64,000 nt of DNA from Bacteroidota bacterium (GCA_018266735.1 JAFDZT010000002.1:172439-236438); one strand, 5' to 3'; positions 12,450 to 38,185 are shown, counted from the first letter of the stretch. Translations and numbers: made by a program. The notes: generated by a model not told the origin, from the letters alone.

Positions 12450-15272
12450 ATGTCTGTACCCCTGAAGGTCATCGCCATACGCGGTGCCCGCGTGAACAAT
12501 CTCCGGAATGTCGATGTCGACATTCCCCGCAATGCCCTTACGGTGATCACCGGCGTGAGCGGGTCGGGGAAGTCGTCTCTGGCATTCGACACGCTCTATG
12601 CCGAGGGACAACGCCGCTTTGTGGAGTCCCTGAGCGCCTATGCACGGCAGTTCCTGGACCGCATGAACAAGCCGGACGTGGACTCCATTTCCGGCCTTCC
12701 TCCGGCCGTGGCCATCGAACAACAGGCCTTCTCCAAGAACCCTCGCTCCACCGTTGGCACCACCACAGAGATCTACGACTACCTACGTCTGCTGTACGGA
12801 CGTGTGGGCATCGTGATCGACAAGGACACCGGCGAACTGATCCGAAAGGACTCCGCGCAGTCCGTGGTCGACGCCATGATGGCGCTTCCCGAAGGAAGTC
12901 GGTTGTATGTGATGTACGTGCTCCCGAAGGAGCATGCATCCACCAAGGACGTTCGTGAAGGACTTGCCGCGCGCGGATTTTCGCGCATGGTCTTGGGTGA
13001 CAGTACAGAGGTCACCGAGATCGCCTCGATCGATCTGCTGCCGGACAAGGTGGACATCTTCGTCCTGGTCGATCGTGTGATCGTCCGTGCCGATGATGAA
13101 GTGCGGAGTCGATTGACGGATTCGGTCGAGACGGCCTTCGAGGCAGGCAACGGTCGCATGGTGATCCGCGACATCACGACGGGCGTCGACCATTACTTCT
13201 CGTCGCGCTTCGAAAGCGCACGCACGCAAACACAATACATCGAGCCGGAACCACGACTCTTCTCGTTCAACAATCCGTTCGGCGCATGTCCTACATGTCA
13301 GGGATTCGGTCGCAGCGTTGGTATCGACGAACACCTGGTGATCCCCGACAAAAGTCTCTCTCTCCGTCGTGGTGCCTTGGCACCGTTCCGCGGCGATGTC
13401 TTCGGAGCCTACTTGCGCGAACTGCTGCGAGAGGCACCGCATCACGGGCTTCCGGTGGACAAGCCCGTCGGCTCGTTCACGCAAGAGCAAGTCGATCTGT
13501 TGTGGGACGGCATTGGCGACTATATCGGTCTGCATGCCTTCTTCAAGATGCTCGAAGAGAAGTCGTACAAGACACACTATCGCGTGATGTTGAGTCGGTT
13601 CCGTGGCTACACGAAATGTCATGCATGTCATGGTTCGCGATTGCGCACGGCAGCCCGACAGGTCTTCGTTGCAGGATTGAACATTCCGCATGTGGTGAAC
13701 CTCACGTTACGCGAGGCGGCCGATCACTTCGACTCTATCGAACTCACCGAGCATGAGGAGCAGATCGTCGGACAGATCCTGTCGGAACTCCGTCGACGTC
13801 TGCGACTCCTTGTCGACATCGGACTCGACTATCTCACGCTCGATCGGCTCTCGCACACGCTTTCGGGCGGGGAATCGCAACGCATCAACCTTGCCACCTC
13901 GCTTGGCAGCGCCCTCGTTGGAACACTCTATGTGCTCGACGAACCGAGCATCGGACTGCATCCGCGCGATACGTATCGACTGCTCAACATTCTGCAGCGA
14001 CTGCGCAACCTTGGCAACACGGTTGTGCTCGTGGAGCACGATCTCGACGTGATCCGCACCGCCGATCATGTGATCGACATTGGTCCGGCCGCCGGCGAGT
14101 TCGGTGGGGAAGTGGTCTATAGCGGCGCGTTCACGGACATGGTCGAGAACGGCTCGTCGCTCACCGCAGACTACCTCACGCGCAAACGTGTGGTCGATGT
14201 ACGCACCACGTATCGCAAAGGCAACGGCAAACAACTGTCCATCATCCATCCCATGCACCACAACCTGAAAGGTCAGGACGTGCACATTCCGCTTGGATGC
14301 ATGACGGTGGTCACGGGTGTGTCGGGCTCGGGAAAGAGCTCCCTCATTCACGATGTGCTGTACGCCGGATTGAAGCGCGTGCAAGGTGGATACACAGGCG
14401 AAGTGGGATCGTGTGAGCGTATCGAGGGCATTGAGTTCATCAAGACCGTCGAGATGATCGATCAAACACCGATCGGTCGTTCCACGCGCTCCACGCCGGC
14501 CACCTACACTAAGGTCTTCGACCTCATCCGCGATACGTTCGCGCAAACGCAAGCAGCAAAGCAGATGGGCTGGAAGGCCGGCCACTTCTCGTTCAACGTT
14601 GCCGGCGGACGGTGCGATGTATGCGAAGGCGAAGGCACGGTGACCATTGAGATGCAGTTCTTGCCCGACATCGAACTTCCGTGCGAAGTGTGTGGCGGTA
14701 CGCGGTACAAACGCGATGCTTCCATGATCTTGTACAAGAACAAGTCCATCGTCGACGTGCTGGCCATGACCGTTGATGAAGCGGCAACACTTTTTGAATC
14801 GGTCCCGAAGATCGTGCAGAAGCTCAATGTGTTGCAGGCCGTCGGACTCGGCTACATCCGGCTCGGACAGCCATCGTCGCACCTATCGGGTGGCGAAGCG
14901 CAGCGTATCAAGCTTGCCGCACAACTCGATGTGGACTCGGACGGTCCCATCGTCTTCATCTTCGACGAGCCCACCACCGGCTTGCACATTCACGATACGG
15001 CCGCACTCCTCGCGGCCTTCGACCAGCTCGTCAAAAAAGGTCACACGCTCATCGTGATCGAACACAACGTCCACGTCATGGCCGCCGCGGACTGGATCAT
15101 CGATCTCGGTCCGGAGGGTGGGGAAGGTGGCGGGGCCATCATTGCAACGGGCACTCCGAAGACCGTTGCCACGGTTCCTGGCAGTCACACGGGTGTTGCC
15201 TTGCGTGCCTTCTTTGAAGAGCATGGCATTGCCGTTCCGCGTCGACGGGCGGCTTCCGGAAAGAGCGCATGA
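12450..15272 (+). CDS. uvrA: Excinuclease ABC subunit A (UvrA), 940 aa. Start [26 protein letters not shown].
   Basis: Two ABC ATPase modules with Walker [11 protein letters not shown] (x2), LSGGE signatures and zinc-finger cysteines ([14 protein letters not shown]). The track ORF starts upstream at 12204 with an N-terminal extension. Confidence 0.95.
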
Positions 15273-32431: not shown

Positions 32432-34609
32432 TCATGGGAGGTTGAACCATGGAACAACCATGTCGTGATCGTCGATCGTGAGCACCACCCATCCATAGAA
32501 CGTCGAGGCATCGCAGAAGAGATCGGAGATGTGTAGTTCACACGGCGTGTTCGTCATGATGCACTGCGGATACTGTCGGCCTCCGACATCAAATGCACGT
32601 ACCGTCACTTGTCGGGACGACGTTCCATCCAGAACAAGACTTCTCCCCCGTCGTTGCATCAGTGTTCCGGCGGACGGGTCGAACAAGCGTGGCCCGGCCT
32701 CCATGCAAACATCGAGTGAGCAGATCCCGAACCTGCCAAGGCGAGGGATCACACGAGCATCGTCGACGGTGAACGAGTCGATCGTGATCATGCTTCGTTC
32801 GTCATCACCCAAGGTGACCATCATTGGAATGCGAAGCACCGTGTCAGTCAATCCTGCGTACGTCGGCATCTGCATCCACATCCATCGCCATGCGCGCGAT
32901 AGCTGCGAACCGGTCGATGCGTCGCGCTGCGGGACCAAGACCGACGCTCGGGTCATCAATCGAAATCGAATGGTCGCCGGATAGCGGATGCTGTCGCGTG
33001 TGGACACATGGATGACCACATCGACGCTGTCGCCCGGACGTCCACGCACATCGTCGATGCGAAACCCCACATCACTGGTGGGCTCTGCACACGATGTGGT
33101 ATCCACTCGCATCGTATCCCGAAACACGCAACCGTCGTTGGTCATGATGGCACAGATCACCTGATTGCGCTTCTTCGTTGGCGTCACCTCGATCTCGGGT
33201 GCATTCAACGGTTGGAGTGCATCGTTCACCCACCAGTCATACTGTGCACCGCCCATTGCACGCACAAGGGCTTTTGACCTTCCGCAAACGGTTGTGTCGG
33301 GGGTGACGATGCGCGGGACGACAAAGGTCGACGTCGACATTGGCAGATCCGACATTTGCAACCGGACCCCATCCGTTCCAGAGCTCGCACCATGACGTAC
33401 ATCGCTCGAACACGTGACATCTCGAGCCATTCCGGCAGATCCGCCAAGGACCGATGCGGCAACGGGGATCGACGTGATCACACGTCCACCTCCCCCTCCA
33501 CCACCCGGAGCATAACAACCGTTCGTTCCGTTGTTCTCGCCGCCATCTCCACCATCGACAACACATTGCGCTGTGCCCACGATCGTTGATGCGAAGAAAG
33601 CGATCGAACCGCCGGCTCCACCGCCACCGGCTCCATCCTCCAGTGCGTTGCGGGCCGTTGCGCCGCGAGCGTCAAGTACGACACCGCTGTCGACGATCAC
33701 AACCGAGGCGATGACGACGATGATGCCACCACCGGCCGCACCTGCCGATCCTTTGAAGTCGTTCTGATGTCCTCCCCCTCCGCCACCTCCAAGGAAGAGT
33801 CGATGTGGGTCGTTCGTTGCCAAAGCATACCCACCACGTCCACGCACGTCGGTGGGGAACAAGGTCGACGGCTGTGTCCCGCCCATGCCGCCTTCTCCAC
33901 CGTTCCCGCCTCCTCCACCTCCTCCGTTCCGTGCATTGCCTCCACCACCGCCGCTCGACCATGGTGAGCGCCCAGCTCCAAGTGCTCGCACTGCCGCCGC
34001 ACTTCCCTCTCCCTTGCGTCCACCGAGACCTGCGTCATCGCGAGTTGCCCAACTCGTCTCGGCCGTGTCCAGCGTGTTGAGACTCACGGCACCGCCGCGA
34101 TATCCCATCCCGCCTGCGTCCAATGATGCGTGGAGACGCAGGGTGTCGGTACATTCGATGGCGATCACGCCACCGGAGGTTCCATTCCATGCTTGTGCCG
34201 TCACAAGGCCGGTCACGTCCGCCGACGTTGATCGCGCCACCTTGATCAGTTGCACGCCGTCTGTTGTGGAGTATCGATGGATCGGGCGATGCGTCAATCG
34301 GACCGTGCCGCCCATTACCGTATCGACGGTACACAACTCCCAAAGACCTGCGTTGGCAACATCGTTGATCGCTCCCGTGCGATCTGTGCGTGACGTGTCG
34401 ACATGCACCCCTTTCATTTGCAACAGCATGATACGATCGCCCTTCTTCAACCAAGCCACGGGCGTGATGCGCACAGTGTTGCGGCAGGTATCGAACGAGC
34501 TCACGGCCGCATACTGATTGATGCGACCACGGAGGTCGGTGGCCTGCGCATCGGCAATGCCGGCAAGCATGATGAAGCCGAGCAAAAGGATGGTCGATGT
34601 TGTTCTCAT
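32432..34609 (-). CDS. Secreted glycine-rich repeat protein of about 725 aa (operon gene 4). Start MRTTSTILLLGFIMLAGIADAQA.
   Basis: Signal peptide. Long G-runs (GGGGGNARNGGGGGGGNGGEGG, GGGGGGGHQNDFKGSAGAAGGG, GGGGGGGR) interspersed with beta-strand-like segments. The C-terminal 60 aa were considered as a T9SS CTD but are not convincing. Confidence 0.5.
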   Translation of the reverse strand: MRTTSTILLLGFIMLAGIADAQATDLRGRINQYAAVSSFDTCRNTVRITPVAWLKKGDRIMLLQMKGVHVDTSRTDRTGAINDVANAGLWELCTVDTVMGGTVRLTHRPIHRYSTTDGVQLIKVARSTSADVTGLVTAQAWNGTSGGVIAIECTDTLRLHASLDAGGMGYRGGAVSLNTLDTAETSWATRDDAGLGGRKGEGSAAAVRALGAGRSPWSSGGGGGNARNGGGGGGGNGGEGGMGGTQPSTLFPTDVRGRGGYALATNDPHRLFLGGGGGGGHQNDFKGSAGAAGGGIIVVIASVVIVDSGVVLDARGATARNALEDGAGGGGAGGSIAFFASTIVGTAQCVVDGGDGGENNGTNGCYAPGGGGGGGRVITSIPVAASVLGGSAGMARDVTCSSDVRHGASSGTDGVRLQMSDLPMSTSTFVVPRIVTPDTTVCGRSKALVRAMGGAQYDWWVNDALQPLNAPEIEVTPTKKRNQVICAIMTNDGCVFRDTMRVDTTSCAEPTSDVGFRIDDVRGRPGDSVDVVIHVSTRDSIRYPATIRFRLMTRASVLVPQRDASTGSQLSRAWRWMWMQMPTYAGLTDTVLRIPMMVTLGDDERSMITIDSFTVDDARVIPRLGRFGICSLDVCMEAGPRLFDPSAGTLMQRRGRSLVLDGTSSRQVTVRAFDVGGRQYPQCIMTNTPCELHISDLFCDASTFYGWVVLTIDDHDMVVPWFNLP

Positions 34610-36009
34610 AGTTGCTGTGCCACAATGATCCATCGTTGCCACGATGCATCGTACCAAAGAAGAAAAGTTCCATCATTCACAGTGGTCACATCGTCACCGG
34701 TCATCGACGTGATCCGATTGATGGCCTGTGATCCGATACCCTCGTGCACGAGCGTGAGGGGAGCACCGCGATTCACGATGAGGAGCACCTTTCCGTCTTC
34801 CCCGCCACTGAATCCCGTGATCACCGACCCCGGTGCGGTGCTCCATACTCTGATCACGCTGTAGGTACCGATATCCACGTTGTGATGCATACCGGCAACG
34901 AGATCGGGAAGAGTGCTCCCACGCATCGAGAAATTGCGTGTCGACATTCCTCCCGACGTGCGTGCATGATGCATGTACGTCGTGGACGTATTGGAAACTC
35001 CAAGAGCATTCATCATGGTGGTCGACAGTCCGGGCGGACGTTCATCGTCGCTGCATCCAAGGACCACCGAAGCACCTCCACTCACGACCAGCCCGAAGCT
35101 GTTGGGAAGCGATGGTGCGACGAGATGCGCAGCGATCGCTCCGTAGTTGCCGGTAGCCGACGTTGTCACTTCACCATGCAAGGCTTCGACCAATCCCGCT
35201 TGCGCTGTGGCCGTCGCCTCCGCGATGGCCTTCACGGCCATGCTCTGTGTTTGCGATCCGCCGTTGCCACCACGCGTCACGGTGCCAAGCACTCCAACGA
35301 TATCGTCGGAAGCGGCGGCGCTGTTCGACGCAGCATGCCCTCGCACACCAACACGGGCTCGAAGCGGCGGGTCGGCATAGGCCGATGATTGCGAGCTACC
35401 GACCAGAGCGGCGCCCAACATGTTGGTCCGAAAGAATCCACCAACATTGTCGCTTCCCGACGTGGTCACATCGATCCCGCGGGACGGCGGAACGGTCCCG
35501 CCAATATCAAGCGCTGTAGCGGTTCCTGCTGACAGTGCGTTGTATCGGATCCCCGTTCCGCCCGTGATGTCGATCCCGGTTCCTAGCGTCGGACGCTGAG
35601 CGTCGGGAGGACCGCCCAAGCGTAGGCCGGTACCGGAGCCGTTCGACGCCGACTGGATGACAATTCCCGCGTTCTCTGTGCCACTCATTCCAATGTTCTT
35701 CACCACGATGCCATTGGATGCCTGTGTGCCGATCATGTCGACCACCAGTCCGTTGCCATTCCCCGCATCGATCGAGGCAATGCGCATGCGCTCGTTGAGT
35801 GCAGCTCCTACGCCACTCCCAACCCCAAGTCGGAGTGGCAACTGCACATCACCGGCCGTACTCAACTGCATGGCCACTACTTGCGGATCTGCACCGACAA
35901 GGAACTGCATCGGTTGCCGCGACCGCAGTGCGCGGGCTCCGAACGACTGTCCACTTGTCTGCACCACGCAACACACGATGGCGATATGTGCGACACACCA
36001 CTTCATCAC
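34606..36009 (-). CDS. Secreted Gly/Thr/Ala-rich repeat protein of 467 aa (operon gene 3), fibre or adhesin-like.
   Basis: Signal peptide MKWCVAHIAIVCCVVQTSGQS. Repeated G-x-G-I motifs (NGLVVDMIGT, NGIVVKNIGMSG, NAGIVIQSASNGSGTG, GTGIDITGGTGIRY, ALDIGGT). C-terminal W-containing tail (…LLWYDASWQRWIIV). Confidence 0.5.
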   Translation of the reverse strand: MMKWCVAHIAIVCCVVQTSGQSFGARALRSRQPMQFLVGADPQVVAMQLSTAGDVQLPLRLGVGSGVGAALNERMRIASIDAGNGNGLVVDMIGTQASNGIVVKNIGMSGTENAGIVIQSASNGSGTGLRLGGPPDAQRPTLGTGIDITGGTGIRYNALSAGTATALDIGGTVPPSRGIDVTTSGSDNVGGFFRTNMLGAALVGSSQSSAYADPPLRARVGVRGHAASNSAAASDDIVGVLGTVTRGGNGGSQTQSMAVKAIAEATATAQAGLVEALHGEVTTSATGNYGAIAAHLVAPSLPNSFGLVVSGGASVVLGCSDDERPPGLSTTMMNALGVSNTSTTYMHHARTSGGMSTRNFSMRGSTLPDLVAGMHHNVDIGTYSVIRVWSTAPGSVITGFSGGEDGKVLLIVNRGAPLTLVHEGIGSQAINRITSMTGDDVTTVNDGTFLLWYDASWQRWIIVAQQL

Positions 36010-36908
36010 ATGCCCATGACGATCCAGAGCAAGCGCTCTGTTGGTCCCAACGTCGTTGATGTCTCGACCGTGATCGTGTTGGCTGTTTCATCGATAGCGG
36101 TGACGCTGGCACTGATCGTTGTGCCGGGCGCATTCATCACCGTCACGAGCACCACATCGCCAAGCTTGACATCATACGGTGTGGTGTTGATCACATGAAT
36201 GTGCTCACCGGTCACCGGTGTATAGCGCCCCTTCCCAATGGCATTCGTTGGCGACGTCCACGACATCACGCCGCCGGTGGTGGCCGTCATCACTTGTCCG
36301 TCGGCCGATGGAGGTGTTGCCGGCAAGGTATAGGTGATGTCTGCAGCTTGTGCTTGTGCCTTGAAGGACGTCGTGTTCGATCCGTCCGCCGTCGGCTCCT
36401 GGAACTTCAATAGCGATGCGCTACCGTAATTCGACAGCAGCACATCTCCCTGCACATCAAGGCTGGCCTTCGGTGTTGCCGTTCCAATACCCACGTATCC
36501 CTGCGTGGGTCCGGCCGTGCCCACAATGCGCAAACGCTCACCTGCATTCGCCGCAAGCACAAGGTCCTGCGAATTGCTCGTACCGATGTACTGCTGACCC
36601 ACGCCCGTTCCACCCGTGGTGATCGATGAACCCGAGAGTGACCAGTACGGCATGCTCGTCCAGCCAAGCGTTGCCGTGGTACCGCTCACGCTGGAAACCG
36701 TGAGAGCTTCTCCCTGTGCACCGATGGTGGCAGGAAGCTCCATCTTGTAGCCCGTGACACCGGTGGTCGGAAGTGTCAGCGACACCGTGGCCGGCTGTCC
36801 GTTGCGCAAGTTCAAGGTGCCCGTCGTGGTGGACTGAGCTTTCGACAGAACGACAGCACTTGCCGTCAAGATCAACACTGTCCATGTTGTTCGCATGATC
36901 CTCTTCAT
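36006..36908 (-). CDS. Secreted tail-fibre-like repeat protein of 300 aa (operon gene 2).
   Basis: Signal peptide MKRIMRTTWTVLILTASAVVLSKAQS. The motif block WSLSGSSITTGGTGVGQQYIGTSNSQDLVLAANAGERLRIVGTAGPTQGYVGIGTATPKASLDVQGDV ... ITYTLPATPPSADGQVMTATTGGVMSW matches, from memory, the recurrent '…N.GIGT..P...L.V.G … LP…G..GQVL.T.G.G.LSW' repeat of Bacteroidota/phage tail-fibre-domain proteins. Its C-terminal PTERLLW motif is shared with gene 1. Confidence 0.5.
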   Translation of the reverse strand: MKRIMRTTWTVLILTASAVVLSKAQSTTTGTLNLRNGQPATVSLTLPTTGVTGYKMELPATIGAQGEALTVSSVSGTTATLGWTSMPYWSLSGSSITTGGTGVGQQYIGTSNSQDLVLAANAGERLRIVGTAGPTQGYVGIGTATPKASLDVQGDVLLSNYGSASLLKFQEPTADGSNTTSFKAQAQAADITYTLPATPPSADGQVMTATTGGVMSWTSPTNAIGKGRYTPVTGEHIHVINTTPYDVKLGDVVLVTVMNAPGTTISASVTAIDETANTITVETSTTLGPTERLLWIVMGM

Positions 36909-36952
36909 AGGATCTCCTCCATGTAAACCGTGAAAGAATGAAAGTGAGTCTC

Positions 36953-37708
36953 CTACTCTGATAGCAGGAACCAATGGATTCGTTCTGTGGGAAGTAGGAT
37001 GGCTGCCGTTGTGATCGTGAACGTGCCTGCCATCTCGTCGATCTTCGAAACGCAACACCCGATGCTCTCACCGCTTTGCGAGATCACCACTGCCGTGATG
37101 CGCGAGCGAAGCGTTAACGGCGCCGGTGCTGCTACTGTAAAGGTGCTCGAACGACCGTCAGGTGTGACAACACCATTGATCAAGGGTCGTGAAGGCGGCG
37201 TGGCCGAAATGGTGAGTGTGTTGCCGTTCTTCGTGATGCGTGTGTTCTCATCACCTACCAAGCGAACATTTCCTGCCACCTCGTTCACGCTCGTGACCAC
37301 ACCCGACACTTCTCGGTCAAGAGCTGTGGCCGTTGCAGCATGCTCGGCATTGAGTGCATACGGCACGCTCGTGAGTGCAGTGCGTGGGAACATCTCTTCG
37401 TCATCGTCGACGAGGATGCCCAGGTAGACCGTTCCCTCGGCCAACAGCTCCATGGGAAGTCCGTGCTGTTCACCAAGACTGAGTGCTACCACGCCATCAA
37501 TGAAGTCGGCATCGTACGATTCCTCAAAGCGCACCTCCGTAGCAGCGACCCCGTCGTACCACCGCACTGTCACGCGATGTGACCCTTGCAACGGCGCACC
37601 ATTGCGCGTTGCCATCGCCTGATAGCTGATCGTGTGTGGGAGTTGTGCCACGGCCCCGCTCGATGCCATGAGCATCAGTAGTCCAACCATGGTCTGCTTC
37701 ATCATCAT
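36953..37708 (-). CDS. Secreted tail-fibre-like protein of about 251 aa (operon gene 1). Start MMMKQTMVGLLMLMASSGAVAQ.
   Basis: Signal peptide. The N-terminal mature sequence LPHTISYQAMATRNGAPLQGSHRVTVRWYDG resembles, from memory, the 'IP..I.YQG.L.D.NG.P..G.......YD' N-terminus common to Bacteroidota fibre-like proteins. The C-terminal motif CCVSKIDEMAGTFTITTAAILLPTERIHWF parallels that of gene 2. Confidence 0.5.
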   Translation of the reverse strand: MMMKQTMVGLLMLMASSGAVAQLPHTISYQAMATRNGAPLQGSHRVTVRWYDGVAATEVRFEESYDADFIDGVVALSLGEQHGLPMELLAEGTVYLGILVDDDEEMFPRTALTSVPYALNAEHAATATALDREVSGVVTSVNEVAGNVRLVGDENTRITKNGNTLTISATPPSRPLINGVVTPDGRSSTFTVAAPAPLTLRSRITAVVISQSGESIGCCVSKIDEMAGTFTITTAAILLPTERIHWFLLSE

Positions 37709-37795
37709 CGTCCGCCTCCTGCATGCGTGTACCCCCCTACGGGACCCGCATCCATCCGAACGTGACACTCTGCACTAGATATTTCTCATCGCACT

Positions 37796-37890
37796 CACCA
37801 CTTGTCACTCGTCACTTGTCACTTGTCACTTCTTTTGTACTTCTCATTTACTTCTCTCTTACTTCTCTTTTACTTCTCTTTTACTTCTCC
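37796..37890. repeat. Short tandem repeat tract. (TCACTYG)4-5, i.e. GTGACAA heptamers on the minus strand, is followed by four copies of about 11 nt TTACTTCTCT(T)(T), i.e. AGAGAAGTAAA on the minus strand. The tract is AT-rich.
   Basis: Seen directly: cacttgtcactcgtcacttgtcacttgtcact + tacttctcatttacttctctcttacttctcttttacttctcttttacttctcc. It encodes the C-terminal …REVKEK tail of ORF 37859..38185 and lies about 90-180 nt upstream of the secreted-fibre operon start at 37708. Confidence 0.8.
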
Positions 37891-38185
37891 ACCATAGTAT
37901 CAAACTCCACACCGCACAGATCACCAATCCACCTGTTTCCCGTTCCACCTCGCCATCCCACCACCGTCCTGTTGTTTGTGTATACGACACGATGGCCCAG
38001 CTCAAGAATGCAATGGCCGTGATGAGCGTGCTCGTTGCCGGGACCGGTCGACGGAACGCATGGAGATACGACAACAGCGCCACCAAACCATAGGCGGGTA
38101 TCCAGATGTACGGATCGGGATCGTTGTACTGGAGCGTAGCGAAGGCAACGAAGATGGTGGCCATCGCAAAGGAGACGTAGCGCAT
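37859..38185 (-). CDS. Hypothetical small membrane protein of 108 aa (3-4 transmembrane helices). Its 3' end runs into the tandem-repeat tract.
   Basis: Hydrophobic helices (FAMATIFVAFATLQY, YGLVALLSYLHAF, LITAIAFLSWAIVSY, GLVICAVWSLILWW). Divergent from the aldo/keto reductase gene. Confidence 0.4.
   Translation of the reverse strand: MRYVSFAMATIFVAFATLQYNDPDPYIWIPAYGLVALLSYLHAFRRPVPATSTLITAIAFLSWAIVSYTQTTGRWWDGEVERETGGLVICAVWSLILWWRSKREVKEK

Follow-up and report, generated by a model that had tools for sequence, protein, structure and literature searches.

At positions 32432-37708 of the window (the whole stretch of 64,000 nt of Bacteroidota bacterium DNA that was analysed, GCA_018266735.1 JAFDZT010000002.1:172439-236438) four consecutive genes lie on the minus strand, in the following called g1 to g4 (Table 1). 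ORF calls confirmed the four genes at the positions given in an earlier note on this DNA, and likewise their tight packing: from the ORF coordinates, g1 and g2 are separated by 44 nt, and start and stop codons overlap by 4 nt both at g2/g3 and at g3/g4. These two overlaps constitute translational coupling. The NCBI-annotated protein P0096 corresponds to g4 read from the ATG at 34609 (100% identity, 725 aa).

Table 1 Features of the four-gene locus, in coordinates of the window.
Feature	Coordinates	Strand	Details
Tandem-repeat tract upstream of g1	37799-37889	-	two repeat arrays
TMEM220-family small membrane protein	37859-38185	-	108 aa; Pfam PF15071, E 7e-17
g1	36953-37708	-	251 aa
g1 signal peptide, residues 1-21	37646-37708	-	predicted
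g1 fibre N-terminal domain, residues 22-132	37313-37645	-	HMM, hhalign
g1 short stalk motif VTGVVTS.NE.AG, residues 133-166	37211-37312	-	
g1 C-terminal domain common with g2, residues 167-251	36956-37210	-	BLASTP, hhalign
g2	36006-36908	-	300 aa
g2 signal peptide, residues 1-24		-	predicted
g2 N-module, residues 25-86	36651-36836	-	
g2 tail-fibre-type repeat unit, residues ~87-220	36249-36650	-	one complete unit, with VGIGTATPKASLDV loop motif
g2 C-terminal domain common with g1, residues ~215-300	36009-36266	-	
g3	34606-36009	-	467 aa; start codon GTG
g3 signal peptide, residues 1-20		-	predicted
g3 N-module, residues 22-100	35710-35946	-	
g3 Gly-rich centre, residues 101-340	34990-35709	-	low-confidence model
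g3 C-terminal beta-sandwich tip ending LWYD....RW, residues 345-467	34609-34977	-	
g4	32432-34609	-	725 aa; ATG at 34609
g4 signal peptide, residues 1-22		-	predicted
g4 Gly-rich beta-helix head, residues ~23-425	33335-34543	-	model
g4 Ig-like module, residues ~430-510	33080-33322	-	model
g4 cohesin-like module, residues ~512-640	32690-33076	-	model
g4 T9SS-CTD-like beta-sandwich, residues ~650-725	32435-32662	-	model

Chromosomal setting and selection

The order g1-g2-g3-g4 is kept in 22 related genomes of the Kapaibacteria lineage, always with all four genes together; the purB genes of these genomes are 73-83% identical to that of the window. Besides purB, the neighbours of the operon are an FG-GAP gene, an aldo-keto reductase gene, ftsY and mfd. 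The operon is best explained as vertically inherited and class-wide in this lineage of uncultured Bacteroidota.

At each locus examined, g1 to g4 are 1:1 orthologues, and the dN/dS ratios of the operon genes, calculated against the closest genome (L004), lie between 0.04 and 0.13. Purifying selection acts on all four genes, and this is therefore not a diversified system. The suggestion of a diversified surface fibre system had to be dropped on these grounds; a diversity-generating element was not seen either.

Directly upstream of g1 and on the same strand, a gene for a TMEM220-family protein is found in roughly half the related loci; it may be co-transcribed with the operon and is outside its conserved core. 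Its 3′ end is overlapped by the tandem-repeat tract, whose presence just upstream of the operon had been correctly recognized. The tract consists of 4.7 copies of the 7-mer CACTTGT (plus strand, 37799-37831) and 5.6 copies of an 11-mer (37828-37889) reading ACTTCTCTTTT on the plus and AAAAGAGAAGT on the minus strand. The same tract occurs in L004, with the 11-mer at 7.6 copies, and was not found upstream of g1 in loci other than these two. A beta-lactamase-family protein encoded in the neighbourhood matches Por_Secre_tail with 22.4 bits, below the cutoff of 27.

Modules of g1, g2 and g3

The central part of g2 holds exactly one copy of a repeat unit of ~135 aa. Searching with a g2 profile yielded 14,906 cluster representatives at E≤1e-3, which at this cutoff sets the size of the superfamily at 14,906 protein clusters or more. 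The best matches are proteins of 1-6.6 kaa in which g2 residues ~85-221 recur many times, and a repeat-unit HMM detected up to 21 copies per protein. P0293, P0287 and P0356 all show the unit, which has the consensus W.L.G....LGT...DLV...N..ER.RI...G.VGIGT..P...L.V, followed by L.F.EP......F.A.AQ...I.YTLP.....G.VL.....G..SW.

P0293 combines several repeat units with a C-terminal Peptidase_S74 domain (E 1.5e-17) and has matches in 143 phage records, to tail fibres or to structural proteins of the virion; several of them cover the repeat region and not the S74 end alone. Together with the g2 profile, these matches bear out the earlier assignment of the VGIGT block of g2 to a tail-fibre-like family. 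An S74-like end was found in ~13 superfamily proteins, and among the relatives scanned with Pfam, S74 was present in P0293 only. Peptidase_S74 (PF13884) had no match in g1-g4 at E≤1, and g1-g3 gave no Pfam match at all, dockerin included. Judged from sequence, the superfamily includes giant fibres of bacteria, a number of proteins with an S74 end and one or more members matching annotated phage tail fibres. Its plan appears best explained as an N-terminal module, 0 to ~20 repeat units and a swappable C-terminal tip. Consistent with this plan, the g1 N-domain, the g3 C-domain and the domain common to g1 and g2 were each located at the expected protein end in superfamily members (17, 15 and 1 of 147, respectively), module matches that support g1-g3 as predicted secreted members of the tail-fibre-like family.

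The HMM of the g1 N-domain matched the N-terminus of the 17 giant repeat proteins with E-values down to 2e-27, and hhalign aligned the domain with a 714-aa Armatimonadota protein at 97.7% probability; the IxYQ start of g1 had thus been rightly placed in this family. The C-termini of g1 and g2 have 31% identity (BLASTP, E 3e-8) over a domain of ~85 aa, larger than the motif first noticed, and a family-versus-family comparison by hhalign gave 97.1% probability (E 5e-11). The same domain ends P0372, an otherwise unrelated and normal fibre of 541 aa, and therefore behaves as a tip. These profile comparisons support a conserved domain over a recent duplication. On this basis, g1 would best be explained as an N-terminal base domain, a short stalk and a tip, and g2 as an N-module, one repeat unit and the tip common with g1.

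The Gly content of g3 is 14.6%. Its Gly-rich shaft has no homologue outside g3 orthologues and has a pLDDT <50 in the monomer AlphaFold2 model, which would also fit an obligate oligomer but does not argue for one. The C-domain recurs at the C-terminus of other superfamily proteins, and in P0286, P0330 and P0311, all single-chain relatives, a g2-like start is combined with a g3-tip end. In the model, the tip folds similarly to portions of tailspikes and tail fibres. No sequence match to the tip was found in the PDB, and Pfam Phage_depo_C (PF25692) matched 1 of 49 orthologues with E 0.077, which falls short of a family match. The g3 C-domain HMM covers those residues of P0350 that Pfam gives to Phage_depo_C, an indirect link to g3. 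As a whole, g3 is best explained as an N-module, a Gly-rich shaft and a probable tailspike-type beta-sandwich tip.

The putative surface protein g4 and predicted export signals

In g4 (14.8% Gly) the model shows three beta-sandwich modules behind an adhesin-like beta-helix head, with approximate boundaries taken from the strand pattern; g4 is therefore not a fibre. Of the view that g3 and g4 are Gly-rich beta-solenoid fibres, the beta-helix head of g4 remains, while g4 as a fibre does not, and the centre of g3 is too poorly modelled to count for it. The head matches NCBIfam gliding_AgmC_N (NF047640) with E 5.7e-58 and has 800 relatives, many of which carry T9SS C-terminal domains (CTDs); it commonly occurs with PKD repeats plus Por_Secre_tail or CHU_C. 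The score of 196.8 bits is below the curated cutoff of 275, and g4 was rejected as an AgmC equivalog; the domain is homologous all the same. The C-terminus of g4 aligns with T9SS CTDs, Pfam finds none in 10 g4 orthologues, and it is probably a degenerate T9SS CTD. The best explanation for g4 is a surface protein of T9SS-cargo type, from another family than g1-g3. It differs from Bacteroidota cargo with this head in lacking PKD repeats, in its cohesin-like module and in a CTD too diverged for Pfam. The likeness to two-partner-secretion beta-helix adhesins (EtpA, HMW1) and to cellulosomal cohesins is one of shape and not of shared mechanism. There is no sequence-level family match to either, no dockerin match in g1-g3, and no gene for a TpsB transporter turned up around the operon.

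The N-termini of all four proteins show a basic stretch, then a hydrophobic one ending A-Q or G-Q, and the Gln after the predicted signal peptide is invariant in the families of g1 (Q22), g2 (Q25) and g3 (Q21). For g4 the sequence at this position reads ADAQ|AT. The AlphaFold models place an N-terminal helix at residues 2-19 of g4 and 2-18 of g3. In Bacteroidetes, a Gln directly follows the signal-peptide cleavage site of SPI substrates, the so-called Q-rule (PMC5837995, PMC10653852), and g1-g4 all appear to have a Gln after the predicted site. The N-terminal residue pattern and the invariant Gln in g1-g3 agree with the signal peptides attributed to all four proteins. The idea that the C-terminal domain common to g1 and g2 is a secretion tag found no support: compared with type A (PF18962) and type B (PF13585) T9SS CTD profiles, neither this domain nor the g3 C-domain exceeded an hhalign probability of 2%. 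No outer-membrane export tag was recognisable in g1-g3, and these proteins could be periplasmic.

Comparison with known fibres and interpretation

MAT (mosaic adhesive trimer) fibres of Bdellovibrio bacteriovorus are ~600-1,150 aa long, scattered over the genome, and have diversified to recognise prey; their signal peptide is followed by a conserved N-terminal domain of ~130 aa, and their beta-helical shaft has the capping-loop motif V-G-G/N-pi-x-x-P-x-x-x-L (Caulton et al. 2024, PMC10769870). Like g1-g3, they are chromosomal, phage-tail-fibre-like and signal-peptide-bearing (predicted here); like the superfamily, they have a beta-rich N-terminal domain, shaft loops of the VG.G...P...L type and swappable S74 or non-S74 C-terminal tips. 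In contrast, g1-g3 are 251-467 aa long, lie in one conserved operon as 1:1 orthologues under purifying selection, lack S74 and belong to a lineage without known predatory lifestyle. The link to MAT fibres appears weak. The g2 profile matched the Bd2439 MAT fibre (8OL4) weakly (E 0.001) in one loop motif, over GNVGIGTTTTTEKLNVQGNV, and the one MAT-type loop of g2, YVGIGTATPKASLDV, has its Pro shifted one residue relative to the published motif. Against Bdello_MAT_N (NCBIfam NF053851), g1 reached E 0.086 and 12.6 bits, below the cutoff of 60, with a match in 1 of 20 orthologues; P0373 and P0371, which contain the g1 N-domain, gave E 1.5e-5 and 0.002, both below cutoff.

The ~135-aa repeat unit of g2 also occurs in "tail fibre domain" proteins that end in S74 and in the tail fibres of phages, for example cyanophages and Thermus phages; the K1F endosialidase and the T5 L-shaped fibre represent the structural type. 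Unlike these proteins, g2 contains a single unit and lacks an S74 chaperone, and g1-g3 match no sequenced phage, have predicted Sec signal peptides and lack virion genes nearby. For the g3 tip, the closest type are the C-terminal or adaptor beta-sandwich domains of phage tailspikes (Phage_depo_C, the N-terminal domains of CBA120 TSP4, Solidus gp83), from which it is set apart by the failed direct matches to Pfam and PDB. The locus had been called undescribed, which holds for the operon itself and not for the kind of protein, since the latter overlaps with phage tail fibres, S74 proteins and, distantly, MAT fibres (PMC10769870).

Building on the gene structure, synteny, module homologies, g4 fold and purifying selection, as shown above, we lean with modest confidence towards a conserved set of mini-fibres (g1-g3) with g4 as surface partner; their oligomeric state, assembly, location, partners and function we infer as follows. 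All four proteins would be Sec-exported, with signal peptidase I cutting before an invariant Gln, in keeping with the Q-rule. Trimeric tail fibres and MAT fibres serve as the analogy for g1-g3, which probably form short oligomeric fibres. The tip common to g1 and g2 may dock both to the same partner, an external ligand or another operon product, and g4 would be displayed on the cell surface. Together the four might form a conserved module for adhesion or surface structure, as opposed to a repertoire of variable receptor-binding proteins.

As gp34-gp37 make up the long tail fibre of T4, so g1 as base, g2 as stem and g3 as shaft plus tip might join end to end into one composite fibre; the g1/g2 C-terminal domain would then be the joint, and g4 would assist assembly or provide a cohesin-like platform. 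The three proteins do carry, in this order, the N-terminal domain, repeat unit and C-terminal tip of one superfamily, P0286, P0330 and P0311 unite a g2-like start and the g3 tip in one chain, gene order equals module order in translationally coupled genes that are always present together, and g4 has its cohesin-like module. We still regard a composite fibre as unlikely: with an N-module and a C-terminal tip of its own, each of g1, g2 and g3 resembles a mini-fibre complete in itself, the supposed joint ends P0372 in a tip-like manner, and the g1 N-domain and g3 tip occur together in 0 of 147 sampled relatives. SprB and RemA-type cargo of Bacteroidota provide the comparison for another reading, in which g4 is a mobile surface adhesin of a gliding-motility or T9SS-dependent set and g1-g3 are accessory filaments. 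It draws on the gliding_AgmC_N match, on the g4-type head in many "gliding motility-associated" proteins with CHU_C or Por_Secre_tail, on the resemblance of the g4 C-terminus to a T9SS CTD and on the apparent presence of T9SS cargo in the lineage (the beta-lactamase-family neighbour, at 22.4 versus 27 bits). Yet the AgmC score is below cutoff, the head is a general T9SS-cargo module with no demonstrated role in motility, Pfam detects no CTD in g4 orthologues, gld or spr genes are missing from the neighbourhood, and we found no paper on Kapaibacteria motility, making this reading quite improbable.

An origin as remnant or domesticated prophage or tailocin tail-fibre genes left in the chromosome could account for the repeat-module family in common with phage tail fibres, for the tailspike-like fold of the g3 tip and for one IMG/VR contig encoding a protein with a g2 half-unit. 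It is largely refuted, and we give it almost no credence. The same four-gene order is found between housekeeping genes in 22 genomes as far apart as their purB identities indicate, and this is therefore not a prophage; no phage genes lie within ~10 kb either side of the operon, in agreement with the earlier note. Neither g1, g2, g3 nor the locus matched any of 50,697 phage records (tblastn/blastn), and IMG/VR contained no g2 or g3 orthologues. Strongly purifying selection and the predicted Sec signal peptides on all four proteins also speak against it; to our knowledge, such signal peptides are not expected in phage tail-fibre proteins. That four unrelated periplasmic or outer-membrane proteins are chance neighbours with no common function would suit the differing family of g4 and the missing export tag of g1-g3. 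We consider it very unlikely in view of the invariant order and presence in 22 loci, the overlapping stop and start codons, the domain common to g1 and g2, and the modules that g1-g3 draw from one superfamily.

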